64,000 bases of DNA from assembly GCA_034669905.1 (NCBI GenBank), contig JAXMOL010000023.1, positions 1 to 64,000 on the forward strand. Direction: 5' to 3'. Source of the stretch: Candidatus Hydrogenedentota bacterium. Lineage in GTDB: Bacteria; Hydrogenedentota; Hydrogenedentia; Hydrogenedentales; JAEUWI01. Position numbers: made by a program. Below are positions 1 through 21,000 of this stretch, in pieces (the stretch's first letter is position 1; each line of letters begins with the position of its first letter).

Positions 1-3000
1 CGTAAAGAAAAAAACTGAAAAACACAACCCTGGTACAGTTCCTCCCTCCTCCGGAGGAGGGAGGAACTGTATAAACAAGAGAGACCAGAAACATCAGCCA
101 ATTGCAGAACTTGCGTTACACGACTATGCCGGCGGAACGCCGGTGCTTCATAGGCGCCGCTGGGCTGCGGTATGGTGCCGCTTCGCGGCTGATTCCCGCG
201 ACGGTGTCGCAGCATGCCGGCGGGCCGCTGGCGCTCCATAGGCTCCACTTGCTCCCAAGCTCTGCTGGGAACGAGGGAAACTTTGCGCCGGAAATGCGGC
301 GTATGGATCGCTGCACCGCGACTTGCCCCTGCCGACTCCAATCTCGATGGGCATCAGAGCTTCCCTTTTTTAGTCGCGAAGGGGCGACATAAACACATTG
401 CAGCCCCGATCCTCCGCTTCCGTCAACTACCCGCACACCGCACGCTACCCCCGTAAACGTTCGAATTTTCAGTCGCGAAGCGGCGACATATCGTAGCCCA
501 GCGGCGAGCGAAGCGAGTCCTGGGTCAAGGGCCTACCTCCCACCCCGTGAGTCCCGAAGGGGCGACATAAACACGTTGTGGAATATCCCCGGCAGTCCTC
601 GATAAACTCCTTCAAGAACACTAACACACTACGGCAGTCAACAAGGGAGGCCACCATGTCACAAACACACTGCAACCTCATCTACCACCTCGTCTTTTCT
701 ACCAAGGGACGCCAACGTTTTCTCAGACCTGACGTGCGTCCAGAAGTTCATCGCTACCTCGCGGGCGCGGTACAGGGTGTGGATGGCATACCGCTGATCA
801 TCAATGGCACGGAAGACCATGTTCATCTGCTGGTGAAGCTGAGCCAGAACCACGCCCTCAAGAATGTGTTGTCCGAAATAAAATCCAACAGCTCCGGCTG
901 GATACACCGACAACACAGCAGCCTCGCCGACTTCGCCTGGCAGGCGGGCTATGGCGCCTTCACCGTGAGTGCGAGCCAAAAGGAACGGGTTTATCGCTAT
1001 GTAAAAAACCAGGAGACACACCATGCCAAATACGCGTTTCAGGCGGAGTATCTGGGCTTGTTGAAGGCCCACGAGGTGGAATACGACGAACGGTATATAT
1101 GGGACTGATGGGGTGCCGGGCTTGTGTCGCCCCGTTGGGACTTGGTTTCAGAGGGCACATGATACCCAGGACTCGCTGCGCTCGCCGCTGGGCTACGATA
1201 TATCGCCGCTTCGCGACTGGTTGGAGCGCTGGACATTGAATTACAAGGCTCCAAAGTAACCCACGCTACACGCCCCTATTTCAGCTCGTTCCCAAGCAGA
1301 GCTTGGGAACGAGAGGATCAGGCACAAAAAACTGCCGGACCCGAAGGCCCGGCAGCGCATGCTGAATTCACTATTCGCTATTCTTCTTACTTCGCGGCTT
1401 GCGTGATTCCGCCAAGGGGCTGACCGTCAGTGGTCCGCAGTCGTGCCGTGGCACCCCAGTCGCCGCCGTGCTGGTAGATGGCGCAGACGAGGGTGTTCTC
1501 TCCGGCCTTCAACGAAACGGGCAGGCGATCCTGGTTGGGGTTCAGGGGACGGCCCACGTTGAGTTCGTGGATGAGTTCGCCATTCCACCAGACCTTGCAG
1601 CCGTCATTGCTGCCGAATTCGAGGATGGCATCTTTCGCCGCGTCGGAAGTAATCGTCGTGCGGAGGTAGGCCACCCGCTGCACGCCACCGAGGCCCCGTG
1701 CGAGGGAGACAATCCACGGACGGTTCCGGTCGAGGCCCATGGGCATGATGGACCACGTGGTATTCGCCGGGTCGGTCTCGGCTTCGAACTGCATTTCGAA
1801 GAGCGCCGAAGCCGGTTTACCTTCCTTGAAGTACGGACCGGCGAACTGCCAGGCGGTGAGGTAGTCTTCCAGACCACCGATACTGTCGAGGACGTTCTGG
1901 GCCTGCTTCTTCACCGTCTCGGGCGTGTCCTGCTGGATATAGGCATTCATGCGTCGGGCCACTTCATCGCGATAAGCACCACTGATGCCTCCCGCAATGC
2001 GGATGACGGCCTGGGTCGCTTCGGCGGCCACGGCCGGGTCCTGCTGGCGGGCTTCCACATATTCCAGTGCTTCCAGGGAGGGCACTTCGGAAAGTCCGGC
2101 CACGACCAGCTTTTTCTCCTGGTCGTTTTTCGCGAGCTTGTCGGCCGCCTTATAGGCTTCCAACTTCGCAGCGGCATTCACCGACTTGGCTGCACGCAAC
2201 TGACGGATGAAGCCCGCGAAGGCTACACTGCGTGCCCCTTCATCAGATGCATCAGCCGCGATGGATTTGAGGTCGCTGAGGGGCCGGGCATCGGGCCAGG
2301 CCGCCAGGGCGTTTACAGCGGCCAGCTTCAACGTGCCGTTGTCGGACTGGACCTGCTGGCGCACGACCTTCAGGGCGTCATCCGTCGCGATTTTACCGAG
2401 GACGCCGATAAGGGCCGCCTTGGTGGCTTCCCCTTCGGACTCGGCCAGGGCGCCACGCACGAGGGCTGTTTTCGCACCTTCGTTGCGAATACGGCCGGCC
2501 AGTTCCACGATGGCCTGCGACACGTTCTTACGCTGGGCCTCATCGGGAGCGTTTTCCAGGAGGGCCAAGAGAGCCCCCATGTCTTCTTCCCCGGCGAGGA
2601 TGCGAAGGGACTGGAGGGACGCGGCGCGCACGGCCCCATCTTCGCTGGCGGCCAGATCAAGCAGGGCAGGCACCGTGCGAATCGCGCGCCGTCCCGACAA
2701 GGCGTCGATGGCTTCCAATTGCTTGGCACCGGTAGCCTTCTGGGCAATCTTGAGGATGGCCACATTCACCTGCTGACCGGGGATGGTCTTCAGGCTGGCG
2801 CGGGCGGTGCGCTGCACTTCCCCGTCGCTCGTGGCGGCCAGGCCCAACAGCACGTCCGCCGTGTCGGCATTCCCGAGGCGCCCAAGGGCACTCAGGGCCG
2901 CCAACTGCACGTCGGCGTCGTCACTCTTCGCCGCGTTGCTTATAGCACCCAGCGCAGCCGTATCGCCCCGGTAGGCCAGTGCTTCGATGATGAGGATCTT

Positions 3001-18000: not shown

Positions 18001-21000
18001 CCCGGCGGCGACAAGTTATCCGGCGCGGCCATTTTCCAACACCCCGACAACCCCGGCTACCCACACCCCCATTATCTCATCCGGCACTACGCGTTTTTAG
18101 GCCACGCCTGGCCCGGTAACACGCCCTATACCATCACACCGGGAAAAGACGTAACGGTGAAGTATCGCTTATACACCCACAGGGGCAACGCAGAAGAGGG
18201 CAAGGTGGCCGAAGCCTGGGCGGCGTACGTGGAAGAGCAGAAGTAGATGAGCGGATTTTCAGTCCTTTGTGATTTTTCTCCCCCCTGTCCTAGGCCGTTG
18301 GCCCAGGCGGGTATGCGGTTGCGCCGTTGGCGCGGAGGAAAATCATCTGAGTGGAATTACGGAAACCTGGTCCCGGCACATTGCGGATGCCAACAACGGG
18401 CACACGTCGGGTTGGATACCCAAGCTGGAATACTGTTGCGCCCTTCGCGCAGAGGAAAATCATCCGAGTGAAATTACGGAGACCTGGCCCCTGCACATTG
18501 CGGGTTCCAACAACGGGCACACGTCGGGATGGATACCCGAGCTGGAATACTGTTGCGCCCTTCGCGCAGAGGAAAACCATCCGAGTGAAATTACGGAGAC
18601 CTGGCCCCTGCACATTGGGGTGCCAACAACGAGCACTCGCCGCGATGGAAACCAGGGCCAATTACACATCTTCGCAACCCAATAGGTCGCACAGATAGCG
18701 CCAAGGGCGCGACAACATACCAGCCTGGGGCAACGCCCCAGGAAACCTTAGAGGCATTCTGTTCAAGGGCTGAAAGCCCGCTCCATAGATAAATTAATGG
18801 ATGCGGTTGCCGCAGTGATACTGCGAAAACGAAAGGGGGCGAAAATTGCCACAATCATTGAGCTTTGTTGTCATTCACGTGATCTTCAGTACGAAAGACC
18901 GCCGTCCCGTTATTAACGACGCGCACGCCGAGAAGGCCTACGCCTATATGGCCGGTGTGGCACGTAACACAGGGTGTGAATGCTATCGTGTCGGTGGTAT
19001 GGCGGATCATGTCCACCTTGCAATCCGACTATCACGTACGATCACCATCGCCAGTCTGGTCGAGGAATTGAAGACATCGTCATCCCGCTGGATGAAGGCG
19101 GCGCCAGCCAACCTGACAGACTTCGCCTGGCAACGGGGCTACGGCTGCTTCTCCGTGGGCCCTCAGGACCTGGATGCGCTGATCGCATACATTGACGACC
19201 AGCAGAAACATCATGAGACCCGCACTTTCCAAGATGAATTTCGTATGTTCCTCAAGAAATACGGTGTGGATTTCAACGAAGCCTATGTCTGGGATTAATA
19301 TGGTGCGGACTTTCAGCCCTTCACGATTCTCTACCCCCTGTCCTGGGCCGTTGGCCCAGGCTGGTATGCGGTTGCGCCGTTGGCGCGGAGAAAATTCATC
19401 CGAGTGGAATTACGGAGACCTGGCCCCTGCACATTGCGGATGCCAACAAGGGGAACACATCGGGATGGATACCCAAGCTGGAATACTGTTGCGCCCTTCG
19501 CGCAGAGGAAAATCATCCGAGTGAAATTACGGAGACCTGGCCCCTGCACATTGCGGATGCCAACAACGGGAACACATCGGGATGGAAACCAAGGCCAACT
19601 ACACATGTTCGCAACCCAATAGGTCGCACAGATAGCGCCAACGGCGCGACAACATACCAGCCTGGGGCAACGCCCCAGGAAACCTTAGAGGCATTCTGTT
19701 CAAGGGCTGAAAGCCCGCTCCATTCCATGGTGAATATACCCACTTGTACAATTTCCCGTCGGGCTTCGCAACTCCTGGTATTCACAGAACGGTAGCACCA
19801 AGTTCAACGCTATCCAAACCCCGAGAACATATCCCATGACCGACACCTCCCCCATCCTCATGTTTAACGCACTCTGGTTCAAACCCGATGGCGGCGCCGA
19901 AAAATACCATGAATATATGCGCGCGGCCTTTCCCATCATGCAACGGCATGGCGGCATCAAACGCACCGGCGGAATCCCGGAGAAGTCCCTCATTGGCAGC
20001 TTTGACGCCGACCTCATTTTTTTCATCGAATGGCCCAGCGAATCGGCCTTTCAGGCCTTCCTGAAGGACCCCGATTTCCCCGCCGCGCAACAGCTTCGGG
20101 AAGCGGCGATTCGTGATTCACTCTTGATTCGTTGTGCACCCGTGTAATGTGTAAGAATCGTTCCGCCACATCTTGCGAAAAAAACAATTCTCTATAACGG
20201 ATATTCCCATGAAGGAAAAACTACACGAAGCCCTGGCCCTCTCCCCCGCGGAACTCTTTGCCCTGCTCCCGCCCAACCGGGTAGGCGAAACGGACCGACG
20301 CTATATGAACGAGGTCCTCGACGCCGGCTTCCGGAATACCATCGACCCGGCAGGCATCCATCAACGTCTGGAGGCCGCCTTCGCTCAGCGCTTTGGGACG
20401 GGCTATGCCATTCAACATAATTCCGGCACGGGCACGATGCACACCTGCCTGTTGGCGGCGGGCATTGGCCCCGGTGATGAGGTTATTGTGCCGCCCCTTA
20501 CGGCGGTGTCCACTGCCGTGGTCGTGGTCCAGTGTGGCGCGGTGCCGGTCTTCGCCGATATCGATCCCAAAACCTACAACATGGACCCGTCCGACGTCGC
20601 CCGCAAGATTACGCCCTATACCCGGGCCATCATCCCCGTGAGCCTTTATGGCCTTCCGCCGGACTACGATCCCATCATGGCCCTGGCCGAGACCCACGGC
20701 CTGGCGGTCATTGAGGACAATGCGGAGTGCTTTCTGTCCACCTACAAAGGGCGGATGGTGGGCACCATCGGCCACGCGGCGAGCTACAGCTTTCAGGCGT
20801 CCAAGCATATGACCTCGGGCGGCGATGGCGGCATGGTCATCACCAACGACAAGGAATACGCGAAGAACATCCGCAAGCGGGGCGCTTTGGGTTTTCGCAC
20901 ACTGGGGGCTACGCCGGGCGATACCTTCGTGCCCCGGGATGTGCGGCAGGATTACGAATTCGAGCGCCACGATGTGATGGGCTACAACTACCGCATGTCG

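Follow-up and report, generated by a model that had tools for sequence, protein, structure and literature searches.

Among Y1 transposases, TnpAY1 subclass 1.2 (Quentin, Siguier, Chandler, Fichant 2018) is presented as a group without REPs (PMC6006769), and the motif Acido-Lenti-1 (RF01687; Weinberg et al. 2010, PMC2864571) is filed in Rfam as 'Gene; sRNA'. We propose, with a probability of roughly 75%, that Acido-Lenti-1 is the outer part of inverted hairpin DNA arms around a subclass 1.2 Y1 gene, dispersed in gene-less, REP-like form, and not a free-standing small-RNA gene. The initial annotation had read the motif as the REP-like hairpin of a RAYT clade; our results support a gene-linked, dispersed DNA hairpin, but the proteins are not strict RAYTs. 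An Rfam "RNA of unknown function" is most likely, then, a transposase-linked DNA repeat that has spread in this and many other bacterial genomes, and our literature search found no paper equating the two.

The window is a 64,000-nt stretch of Candidatus Hydrogenedentota bacterium (GCA_034669905.1, JAXMOL010000023.1:1-64,000), and its coordinates are those of contig C23. By tblastn the genome holds exactly four Y1 genes, at the places initially annotated: g02839 and g02852 in the window (Table 1), g03617 at C34:292-744(-) and g03823 at C37:6023-6478(+). Their divergent 150-aa proteins are 32-54% identical in pairwise comparison, with no duplicated Y1 gene among the four. The protein has an HUH/Y1 core whose nearest solved relatives are the TnpA proteins of ISDra2 and IS608, and both genes in the window pass the NCBIfam IS200/IS605 model NF033573 (cut-off 55). 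The motifs DHVH, WQ and Y---Q--HH can be read in g02839, and those of subclass 1.2 likewise in g02852; by sequence the Y1 proteins carry the subclass 1.2 signature, Y---Q--HH, a membership set by published motifs rather than by the profiles of the subclass's authors. Strict RAYT membership was rejected, the Y---NP motif being absent and the NCBIfam REP_Tyr_transpos score only 24 bits where 80 are required, and the system therefore acts like REP/RAYT without being a member. In arrangement and dispersal, our data support a resemblance between the motif-transposase partnership and that of REP/REPIN with RAYT.

Table 1. Features of the two Y1 loci in the window (window coordinates)
Feature	Position	Strand	Evidence or relation
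Weak diverged Acido-Lenti-1-like copy, outside g02839 left arm	139..190	+	RF01687 23.1 bits, E 0.17
Outermost inverted-repeat partner of 1292-1317	244..269	.	26 nt, 85% complementary
Solo hp2-type hairpin module (TATG-TCG-stem-loop-stem-CT)	372..400	-	direct repeats with 471-499, 550-578
g02839 left arm, outer part (hp1-linker-hp2), Acido-Lenti-1 match	470..525	-	RF01687 29.8 bits
g02839 left arm, inner hairpin hpA	550..578	-	81% complementary to 1117-1142
g02839, 150-aa Y1 (HUH) transposase	656..1108	+	PF01797 (Y1_Tnp) 81.2 bits; NF033573 66.8
g02839 right arm, inner hairpin hpA	1117..1142	+	inverted-repeat partner of 550-578
g02839 right arm, outer part (hp1-linker-hp2), Acido-Lenti-1 match	1164..1219	+	RF01687 28.5 bits
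Outermost partner of 244-269, hairpin GTTCCCAAGC-AGA-GCTTGGGAAC	1292..1317	.	inverted repeat
Whole g02852 cassette	18253..19723	+	absent at orthologous intergenic site in two congeners
Left composite doublet of g02852	18253..18787	.	93% direct repeat of 19327-19723
Left composite, first parts			hpA(+), then module 18288-18333(+)
Left composite, core	18318..18653		117-nt tandem units
Left composite, gene side			module 18698-18743(-), then hpA 18765-18787(-)
g02852, 150-aa Y1 (HUH) transposase, TTG start	18846..19298	+	PF01797 (Y1_Tnp) 92.3 bits; NF033573 69.4
Right composite doublet of g02852	19299..19723	.	inverted and direct repeats of left composite
Right composite, gene side			hpA 19299-19321(+), then module 19341-19386(+)
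Right composite, core	19355..19590		117-nt tandem units
Right composite, RF01687 match	19634..19679	-	25.1 bits
Right composite, outer side			module 19635-19680(-), then hpA 19702-19723(-)

The DNA arm has three hairpins, of which the Rfam motif covers just the two outer ones; the motif belongs to the element, as first supposed, without being the whole of it. Each arm is about 100 nt long and consists, from the gene outward, of the inner hairpin hpA, a long and variable hairpin hp1, a conserved linker of type CTAnnnTATGnCG, and hp2, a short GC hairpin ending in CT that points away from the gene, the two arms of a gene standing in inverted orientation. Repeats in the flanks bear out the arrangement described initially: g02839, g02852 and g03617 have inverted arms (reverse complement upstream, forward copy downstream), and g03823 has a single arm, on its upstream side. 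At g02839 the outer parts of the arms (56 nt) are 96% complementary, and the weak copy beyond the left arm is an 83% direct match to 1183-1222. It counts against the reading that, folded as single-stranded DNA, the g02839 arms do no better than shuffled sequences (z +1.7 and +1.8) and other arms show only modest stability (z -1.2 to -2.8).

At the RF01687 gathering score (37 bits) the window has no match, and the four sub-threshold matches (Table 1) include those at 471-524(-) and 1165-1218(+) beside g02839. Genome-wide, with 150 of 1870 candidates scored, there are at least 86 matches at E<=1, the number reported initially and with the same two included, and at least 34 of them reach the cut-off (31 in the earlier count); among 14 control genomes none has a match over the cut-off, two have matches at E<=1 and none at E<=0.001. 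An nhmmer profile of the motif finds 87 copies (previously 84), and a second profile, built on the diverged second arm, adds 64, for at least 151 module copies in the genome. The copies avoid coding frames: 11 of the 87 lie wholly inside a stop-to-stop frame of at least 200 codons, our proxy for the called genes outside which 82 of 84 copies had earlier been placed, against 76.6 expected from 200 random placements (70-84).

Such a distribution would also suit a small structured RNA or a cis-acting RNA element (stabiliser or terminator) whose gene-side copies act on the transposase mRNA, much as in IS200 a 5'-UTR hairpin and an antisense RNA act on the transposase mRNA. The Rfam model, passed by those 34 or more copies, is strand-specific and supported by covariation, and the copies are intergenic. 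Two contigs from RNA libraries touch relatives of the gene or arm: in X20 record 21 the 3' end of a relative's gene runs on into the right arm of that gene, and X17 record 1 falls within a relative's gene; because such libraries can contain DNA, we take both as a hint of transcription at most. We nevertheless regard this RNA reading as very improbable, though the DNA element might additionally act as RNA, since the two copies at a gene lie on opposite strands, so that in a single transcript one flank would have the motif and the opposite flank its complement, the motif finishes with CT and no T run and is a fraction of a longer conserved arm, and copies form inverted doublets of two topologies as well as head-to-tail arrays, entire units coming and going as DNA.

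The link between arm and gene is conserved across phyla. In a set of 80 homologues (40 from the own phylum and 40 from Acidobacteriota, Verrucomicrobiota, Planctomycetota and others), with RF01687 counted at E<=1, 53 have the motif no more than 200 nt from the gene (28/40 in the own phylum, 25/40 in other phyla), and in 27 it was not found within that distance. An outward-facing copy stands at a fixed 45-75 nt from the gene in 50 of the 80, and 28 have outward-facing copies on both sides; at seven loci the closest copy in a flank points towards the gene. Matches to the nhmmer profile within 200 nt peak at 50-75 nt from the gene, with 52 on the minus strand versus 3 on the plus strand in the left flank and 54 plus versus 8 minus in the right. 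Upstream and downstream flanks pair as inverted repeats (at least 30 bits) at 88 of 108 loci, compared with 6 of 108 when the locus is swapped, and 20 of the 108 loci have no inverted match of that score; the arms are locus-specific. Across 121 genomes of the phylum, 65 have both motif and protein, 12 the protein only, 15 the motif only and 29 neither, an odds ratio of 10.5 uncorrected for kinship. Discarding weak protein matches raises the genomes with motif and no gene to 18, a class already noted in 8 of 61 genomes; in G082, at 96% completeness, there are at least 46 high-scoring motif copies and no Y1_Tnp match whatever.

For every gene there are about 40 gene-less copies, organized into larger structures, among them the head-to-tail arrays on C37, C45 and C63 that had been listed before and 41 inverted doublets. 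The 11 -/+ doublets of the initial annotation stand in number, with gaps of 114-118 nt (115 nt in eight, 114 in two, 118 in one) instead of 115-116 nt, and correspond to the gene cassette with about 35 nt replacing the gene; a second family of opposite topology, 30 +/- doublets with gaps of 31-39 nt, had been missed, and the doublets lie inside larger composite repeats. The commonest hp2 variant (15 copies, including all 11 -/+ doublets) adjoins none of the four genes, so the earlier statement that each gene's own variant recurs in dispersed copies holds for three genes at most. Of 84 dispersed copies, 59 are closer to one of seven resident arms than to any of 80 arms from other genera, versus 23 closer to the latter.

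The doublets of both families sit within larger composite repeats whose ends are unlike the motif and form terminal inverted repeats of their own, AACCACCGGC...GCCGGTGGTT and TAGTGGTCTGA...TCAGACCACTA, and another agent could therefore move the larger units. The arms might then be miniature inverted-repeat elements moved by another transposase or by recombination, with the Y1 genes a favoured landing site or passenger, as the 15-18 genomes with motif and no gene, the complete absence of a Y1 gene from G082, and the unrelated palindromes that fill the g02852 site in two congeners (a possible hot spot) would allow. Chance landing cannot, however, explain a fixed distance and outward facing on both sides across phyla, nor the match of arm to arm within a locus, and no target duplication was seen at the 4 clearly bounded composites among 30 examined; we hold this explanation to be improbable. 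Carrier repeats exist with the doublet and without it, and the two forms differ exactly at one hp2 hairpin; the empty copies are not a single clade (AU p 6.7e-6, with 3 changes on the tree). Instead of enzymatic excision, these doublet losses could reflect slippage during replication over a palindrome flanked by 5-nt direct repeats.

Cassettes with a gene are also present or absent as units, in at least one case. Comparison of flanking genes, which match the congeners G053 at 91% and G034 at 75-85%, shows that both lack the g02852 cassette at the orthologous site, where the interval measures 296 nt and 386 nt, respectively, versus ~1590 nt here. An empty site is also what one would expect if gene and arms were an unusual, still selfish IS200-family insertion sequence and the gene-less copies its MITEs, without domestication or a lasting RAYT-like partnership with the host. 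The NCBIfam scores and the nearest solved proteins fit that account, g02839 has its nearest relatives, in G022 and G024, at different loci, and some relatives have up to 13 matches (G042). Weighing on the other side are the divergence of the four genes and their lack of duplicates, the ratio of gene-less copies to genes, arms that are inverted, unlike the same-orientation LE/RE ends of IS200/IS605, and a g02839 neighbor that is retained in G053 and stands ~4.5 kb or less away in G034 and G080. We judge a purely selfish element unlikely, if the least so of the three alternatives.

For the preferred reading, a transposase-linked DNA arm, we infer movement by the subclass 1.2 enzyme, the strand used and the cut position by analogy with IS608/ISDra2 and E. 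coli TnpA-REP. The enzyme would bind the hairpins in single-stranded DNA at the replication fork, and its tyrosine would cut and rejoin beside them without leaving a target duplication, such that arms or doublets might be excised and re-inserted elsewhere. Gene-less derivatives (single arms, inverted doublets and head-to-tail arrays) would in this way spread through intergenic DNA in the fashion of REP, BIME and REPIN elements.

As in the REPtrons of E. coli, Pseudomonas and Stenotrophomonas (RAYT/TnpA-REP; PMC6006769), a low-copy HUH/Y1 gene lies between inverted hairpin repeats, the same repeat is dispersed intergenically as singles, inverted doublets and arrays, and a genome has divergent paralogues with gene-specific arm variants, here recurring for three genes at most. 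They differ in their class 2 Y---NP motif (class 1 Y---Q--HH here) and single 20-40-nt palindrome (a ~100-nt three-hairpin arm here); moreover, the GT[AG]G foot is absent from the Acido-Lenti-1 repeat, and here a gene-bearing cassette can be present or absent as a unit. With subclass 1.2 the proteins share a length of ~148-150 aa, the DH[IV]H, WQ and Y---Q--HH motifs, a conserved ~30-residue tail, and few copies of low mutual identity, whereas the members studied here have inverted hairpin arms (88/108) and hosts that include Hydrogenedentota, Acidobacteriota, Verrucomicrobiota and Planctomycetota. IS200/IS605 elements (IS608, ISDra2) are alike in protein fold family, in hairpins beside the gene ends and in the lack of an observed target duplication, and differ in the orientation of their ends and in that near-identical gene copies are absent here and gene-less ones many. 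RF01687 itself (PMC2864571) has the same two hairpins and conserved linker and recognizes many copies in this genome over its gathering score; here, in contrast, with four sub-threshold copies in the window, it forms one section of a more extended DNA arm associated with a transposase gene.

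A tblastn search recovers exactly four Y1 transposase genes across the genome, at the same four places named in the initial annotation: g02839 and g02852 in the window (see table), g03617 (C34:292-744), and g03823 (C37:6023-6478), with pairwise identities of 32-54% and no duplicates. Both window proteins exceed the cut-offs of Pfam PF01797 (Y1_Tnp; 23 bits) and NCBIfam NF033573 (IS200/IS605; 55 bits), and both miss that of NCBIfam NF047646 (REP_Tyr_transpos; 80 bits), at about 24 bits. All four genes encode DHVH, WQ, and Y---Q--HH motifs and a conserved C-terminal tail, in which F128, E131, L136, Y147, and D150 are invariant. 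Among 116 homologues, Y---Q--HH is found in 110, WQ in 114, and DH[VI]H in 107, and Y---NP in none. Among proteins of solved structure, the ISDra2 and IS608 transposases are closest in sequence; the E. coli TnpA-REP chain is absent among the 8 solved-structure sequences matching at E<=0.01. In the TnpAY1 classification (Quentin et al., PMC6006769), class 2 (RAYTs proper) has Y---NP and, mostly, REPs whose foot is GT[AG]G, and subclass 1.2 has Y---Q--HH, DH[IV]H, WQ, ~148 aa, a conserved tail, and low copy number and inter-copy identity; its Table 1 gives subclass 1.2 as without a DNA repeat partner. By these published motifs rather than by the authors' profiles or MCL clusters, and with length, tail, and low copy number in agreement, the four genes are putative members of subclass 1.2.

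The repeats around g02839 are nested and mirror-symmetric: positions 470-525 and 1164-1219 are complementary at 96% over 56 nt, with an inner inverted pair (550-575 with 1117-1142) and an outer one (244-269 with 1292-1317). Outward from the gene, every arm opens with a short inner hairpin, hpA, which ~20-25 nt of spacer separate from a long hairpin of variable sequence, hp1; a linker (CTAnnnTATGnCG type) follows, and a short GC hairpin with a CT end, hp2, closes the arm. The hairpins of Acido-Lenti-1 (Rfam RF01687), filed as a small RNA, flank the genes as first described; the model spans hp1, linker, and hp2 only, with hpA outside, and the unit is accordingly longer than the motif with which it had been equated. 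The complete two-arm layout is present at g02839, g02852, and g03617, and g03823 has the upstream arm only. No RNA family reaches its Rfam gathering score (37 bits for RF01687) anywhere in the window. On reading the printed arms we see no GT[AG]G foot; copies start with CC[CT][AT]GG. In single-stranded DNA folding, the three expected hairpins form in the g02852, g03617 (upstream), and g03823 arms, with modest z scores (-1.2 to -2.8), and the g02839 arms are no more stable than shuffled sequences (z +1.7 and +1.8). With DNA z scores from +1.8 to -2.8 over the seven arms, fold stability is too weak an argument in either direction, and we set it aside.

The system appears REPtron-like in its working, that is, like a RAYT/TnpA-REP gene with its REP repeats, yet it falls outside the RAYT class, because its enzymes bear the signature of subclass 1.2, neither Y---NP nor the GT[AG]G foot is seen, and the nearest structures are those of ISDra2 and IS608. 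The RAYT membership claimed initially is contradicted by the 0/116 count for Y---NP, by REP_Tyr_transpos scores of ~24 bits where 80 are required, and by arms in which the foot is unseen.

g02852 is bracketed by two composites, 18253-18787 and 19299-19723, that share 93% identity; both are full inverted doublets whose center consists of 117-nt tandem units. Every 117-nt unit opens with an hp2-like hairpin, and dispersed doublets of the g02852 family are without such units. Elsewhere in the window, we observe a loop-less perfect palindrome of 19+19 nt at 34-71 (TACAGTTCCTCCCTCCTCC / GGAGGAGGGAGGAACTGTA), a stretch (1-125) that is 100% identical to C30:198-322 of the congener G053, and a 90-nt imperfect palindrome (10955-11044) with a weak mir-3851 match (E 0.88), which is probably another inverted repeat.

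Coordinates and scores of features in the window and of carrier repeats elsewhere in the genome
Feature	Position	Strand	Description
g02839	656-1108		150 codons; HUH/Y1 transposase; PF01797 81.2 bits, NF033573 66.8, NF047646 ~23.7-23.8
g02852	18846-19298		150 codons, TTG start; HUH/Y1 transposase; PF01797 92.3 bits, NF033573 69.4, NF047646 ~23.7-23.8
RF01687 match	139-190	+	23.1 bits, below cut-off
RF01687 match	471-524	-	29.8 bits, below cut-off
RF01687 match	1165-1218	+	28.5 bits, below cut-off
RF01687 match	19634-19679	-	25.1 bits, below cut-off
117-nt tandem units	18318-18653		2.9 copies, about 90% matches; center of left g02852 doublet
117-nt tandem units	19355-19590		2.0 copies, about 90% matches; center of right g02852 doublet
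Carrier copy	C6:75273-75463
Carrier copy	C6:132334-132505
Carrier copy	C53:35243-35453
Carrier copy	C74:11923-12146
Filled carrier, example	C45:62030-62460

We scanned 1.5 kb on either side of 80 homologues with all Rfam models (E<=1): 40 loci from the phylum, being the best homologue per genome with contig room, and 40 from other phyla, being the first, among 80 related loci as listed, whose flanks were complete. RF01687 lies within 200 nt of the gene in 53/80 loci (18/20 and 10/20 in the two phylum batches, 12/20 and 13/20 in the two batches from other phyla), facing outward on at least one side in 50/80 and on both sides in 28/80; several of the both-side pairs exceed the gathering score (e.g., L024, L058, L082, L090, L092, L099, and L105). 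Seven loci have, as the nearest copy on a side, an inward-facing one that belongs to a neighboring doublet. An nhmmer profile applied to 120 loci (4 duplicates) finds, within 200 nt, 52 minus- versus 3 plus-strand copies on the left and 54 plus- versus 8 minus-strand copies on the right, with distances from the gene that peak at 50-75 nt. A motif-free comparison of 300 nt per side detects an inverted-repeat match (>=30 bits) in 88 of the 108 loci with both flanks, against 36/108 in direct orientation and 6/108 when the downstream flank is swapped from another locus. In printed arms from 20 loci of several phyla, the order inner hairpin, spacer, hp1, linker, hp2 is retained. One locus, L098 (Desulfococcaceae bacterium HSG8, JAUCGG010000050.1), has at least 13 RF01687 matches within 1.5 kb, mostly in one orientation, in arrays on both sides, and in two different MAGs (L058 and L066; Acidobacteriaceae / Terriglobia) a 16S rRNA gene has its 5' end ~750-900 nt from the cassette.

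Gene and motif also occur together across the phylum. A search with the four aligned proteins (E<=1e-8) finds relatives in 77 of 121 genomes, and RF01687 is present in 80 at E<=0.001, 69 of them above the cut-off; 65 genomes have both, 12 the protein alone, 15 the motif alone, and 29 neither, for an odds ratio of ~10.5 among genomes whose kin are not independent. Dropping five weak protein matches gives 62, 10, 18, and 31, respectively. In one genome of the same order (G082, 96% complete), Y1_Tnp (PF01797) goes unmatched at E<=0.001 despite at least 46 strong RF01687 copies; seven genomes of genus g30 were searched, three of which have the gene (G041, G084, and G118), and G110, like G082, has the motif without it. 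Many homologues begin no more than a few hundred bases from a contig end (e.g., G009:C62:112-561 and G042:C259:126-575). Short-read assemblies seem to break at the flanking repeats, so the number of genomes with the motif and without the gene may be inflated.

In the present genome we find at least 86 RF01687 matches at E<=1, at least 34 of them above the cut-off (150 of 1870 candidates scored); the same search of 14 control genomes matches 2 of them at E<=1 and loses both at E<=0.001. An nhmmer profile built from the Rfam hits retrieves 87 copies, including eleven doublets in -/+ orientation with gaps of 114-118 nt, which on alignment correspond to the gene cassette minus the gene (hp2-hp1-hpA, ~35 nt, hpA-hp1-hp2). 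The 45-nt copies resembling the g02852 arm are halves of a second kind of doublet, whose other half is too diverged for Rfam and the first profile; a profile of this diverged half adds 64 copies, for at least 151 module copies in total, and reveals 30 +/- (type-A) doublets with gaps of 31-39 nt and inward-facing hp2. The arms and dispersed copies reported initially are thus confirmed, in numbers that had been set too low. Only 11 of the 87 copies lie wholly inside stop-to-stop frames of >=200 codons (a proxy for "intergenic"), against 76.6 by random placement (range 70-84, 200 trials). By nearest arm, the 84 copies that are not gene-adjacent divide into 33 for g02839, 31 for g02852, 13 for g03617, and 7 for g03823, with 23, 23, 2, and 4, respectively, at >=80% identity; the most frequent hp2 variant (15 copies, -/+ doublets included) adjoins none of the four genes. 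When 80 foreign arms (48 loci, other genera) are added to the comparison, the closest arm is one of this genome's 7 for 59 of the 84 copies and a foreign one for 23, with 2 ties.

Eight or nine -/+ doublets are enclosed by a ~210-nt "carrier" repeat, of which four to five further copies have no doublet. The alignment places a single hp2 hairpin, AGTCCC-TAC-GGGACT, in the empty carrier and, at precisely that position, two inverted copies of the same hairpin, with the doublet between them, in the filled one. A tree built from only the carrier parts (14 rows; the diverged row E_C12 excluded) intersperses empty and filled copies and requires 3 changes; a constraint that unites the five empties in a single clade lowers the log-likelihood by 71 units (AU p 6.7e-6). 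As the doublet centers also appear, by eye, to group like their carriers, repeated precise loss is the likelier history; the loss could be enzymatic or could proceed by slippage between 5-nt direct repeats at the palindrome base. The carrier ends are hairpins of the CACCGGC-TCT-GCCGGTG type, one of which also occurs alone on C35 (near 65127-65171), within a type-A element. Type-A doublets lie within a larger unit ending TAGTGGTCTGA...TCAGACCACTA.

We compared the neighborhoods of g02839 and g02852 with those in five congeners. g02839 retains its neighbor in G053 at 92-94% identity and lies ~4-4.5 kb away from that neighbor in G034 and G080; in G022 and G024 the genes most closely related to g02839 occupy different loci. 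The genes flanking g02852 are co-linear in G053 and G034, where they are spaced by 296 and 386 nt, against ~1590 nt here, and the site (C621:1330-1626 and C146:1366-1752, respectively) holds unrelated long palindromes instead of the cassette. With the flanking genes kept around a short, cassette-free space, the whole g02852 cassette is a presence/absence unit, and the intergenic site is a possible hot spot of palindrome insertion.

RF01687 copies may also serve as RNA, for example as an mRNA stabilizer or UTR structure. Four RNA-library runs contained 0.09-0.20 of the sampled words, and their contigs, placed on positions 200-4200 of the window, where uncovered stretches carry no information, derive mostly from a close relative's neighboring 842-aa gene; one of 205 nt lies inside the Y1 gene and one of 253 nt joins the 3' end of the Y1 gene to the arm, both giving no ends, strand, or level and possibly being DNA. 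In favor of a DNA element stand the opposite strands of the two copies at one gene, the occurrence of copies in two doublet topologies and in arrays, the status of the motif as a fragment of a longer arm, and the gain or loss of units as DNA.

We tentatively propose, with a probability of roughly 0.3, that subclass 1.2 enzymes and three-hairpin arms form an old REPtron-like system of many phyla, apart from the class 2 RAYTs, that would transpose as a single strand from hairpin into hairpin. Element end and landing site would both be the short TCG-stem-loop-stem-CT hairpin, represented by hp2 and the inner hairpin. Doublets would be excised from, or inserted into, exactly one such hairpin, as is suggested by carrier repeats that do or do not hold a doublet, and the gene-bearing cassette would remain mobile as one unit. 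Architecture, association, and repeat behavior are supported as initially interpreted, with family membership and unit extent corrected.

Our literature search, which covered sources outside subscription journals, found no printed link between Acido-Lenti-1 and a transposase. The accessible supplements of Weinberg 2010 (PMC2864571) hold counts, a table row, a seed alignment that includes records of an acidobacterium and a Lentisphaera, and a drawing, with no remark on neighbor genes of Acido-Lenti-1, and two 2026 preprints still describe its function as unknown, the second speculating that the motif regulates virulence proteases. "Chunjie," considered as an earlier name for such cassettes, is described as an A+T-rich MITE of Geobacter with 9-bp direct repeats (PMC3184786) and is unrelated. 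If correct, our reading would supply a function for an Rfam family that papers call unexplained, forestalling inferences of the virulence-protease type, and a DNA partner for a transposase subclass listed without one in Table 1 of PMC6006769. It would further carry the REP/RAYT lifestyle into the IS200-like branch and into phyla from which it is undescribed, offer a compact, testable system of single-stranded DNA transposition with a predicted 150-aa enzyme and ~100-nt arms, and let RF01687 hits flag assembly-breaking mobile repeats to annotators. Hairpin-into-hairpin movement, if true, would account for an orphan Rfam family that is abundant and occurs in Acidobacteriota, Planctomycetota, Verrucomicrobiota, Hydrogenedentota, and others.

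Among known systems, classical DDE-transposon MITEs share the terminal repeats, but a target-site duplication is unseen at the 4 cleanly bounded composites, a small sample (both outer ends were found by pattern in 11/30 type-A composites). The enzymes pass the IS200/IS605 model NF033573 (66.8 and 69.4 against 55 bits), but near-identical whole-element copies are absent here (four genes at 32-54%), and the subterminal hairpins of IS200/IS605 elements have the same orientation on one strand, whereas the arms described here are inverted (88/108 loci). With class 2 RAYTs the system shares the HUH/Y1 core and inverted flanking copies of a genome-dispersed repeat; it differs in lacking Y---NP, in failing the REP_Tyr_transpos model, and in arms where no GT[AG]G foot is seen. 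With subclass 1.2 it shares the length (150 aa, against about 148), the motifs, the tail, and the low identity of its four copies.
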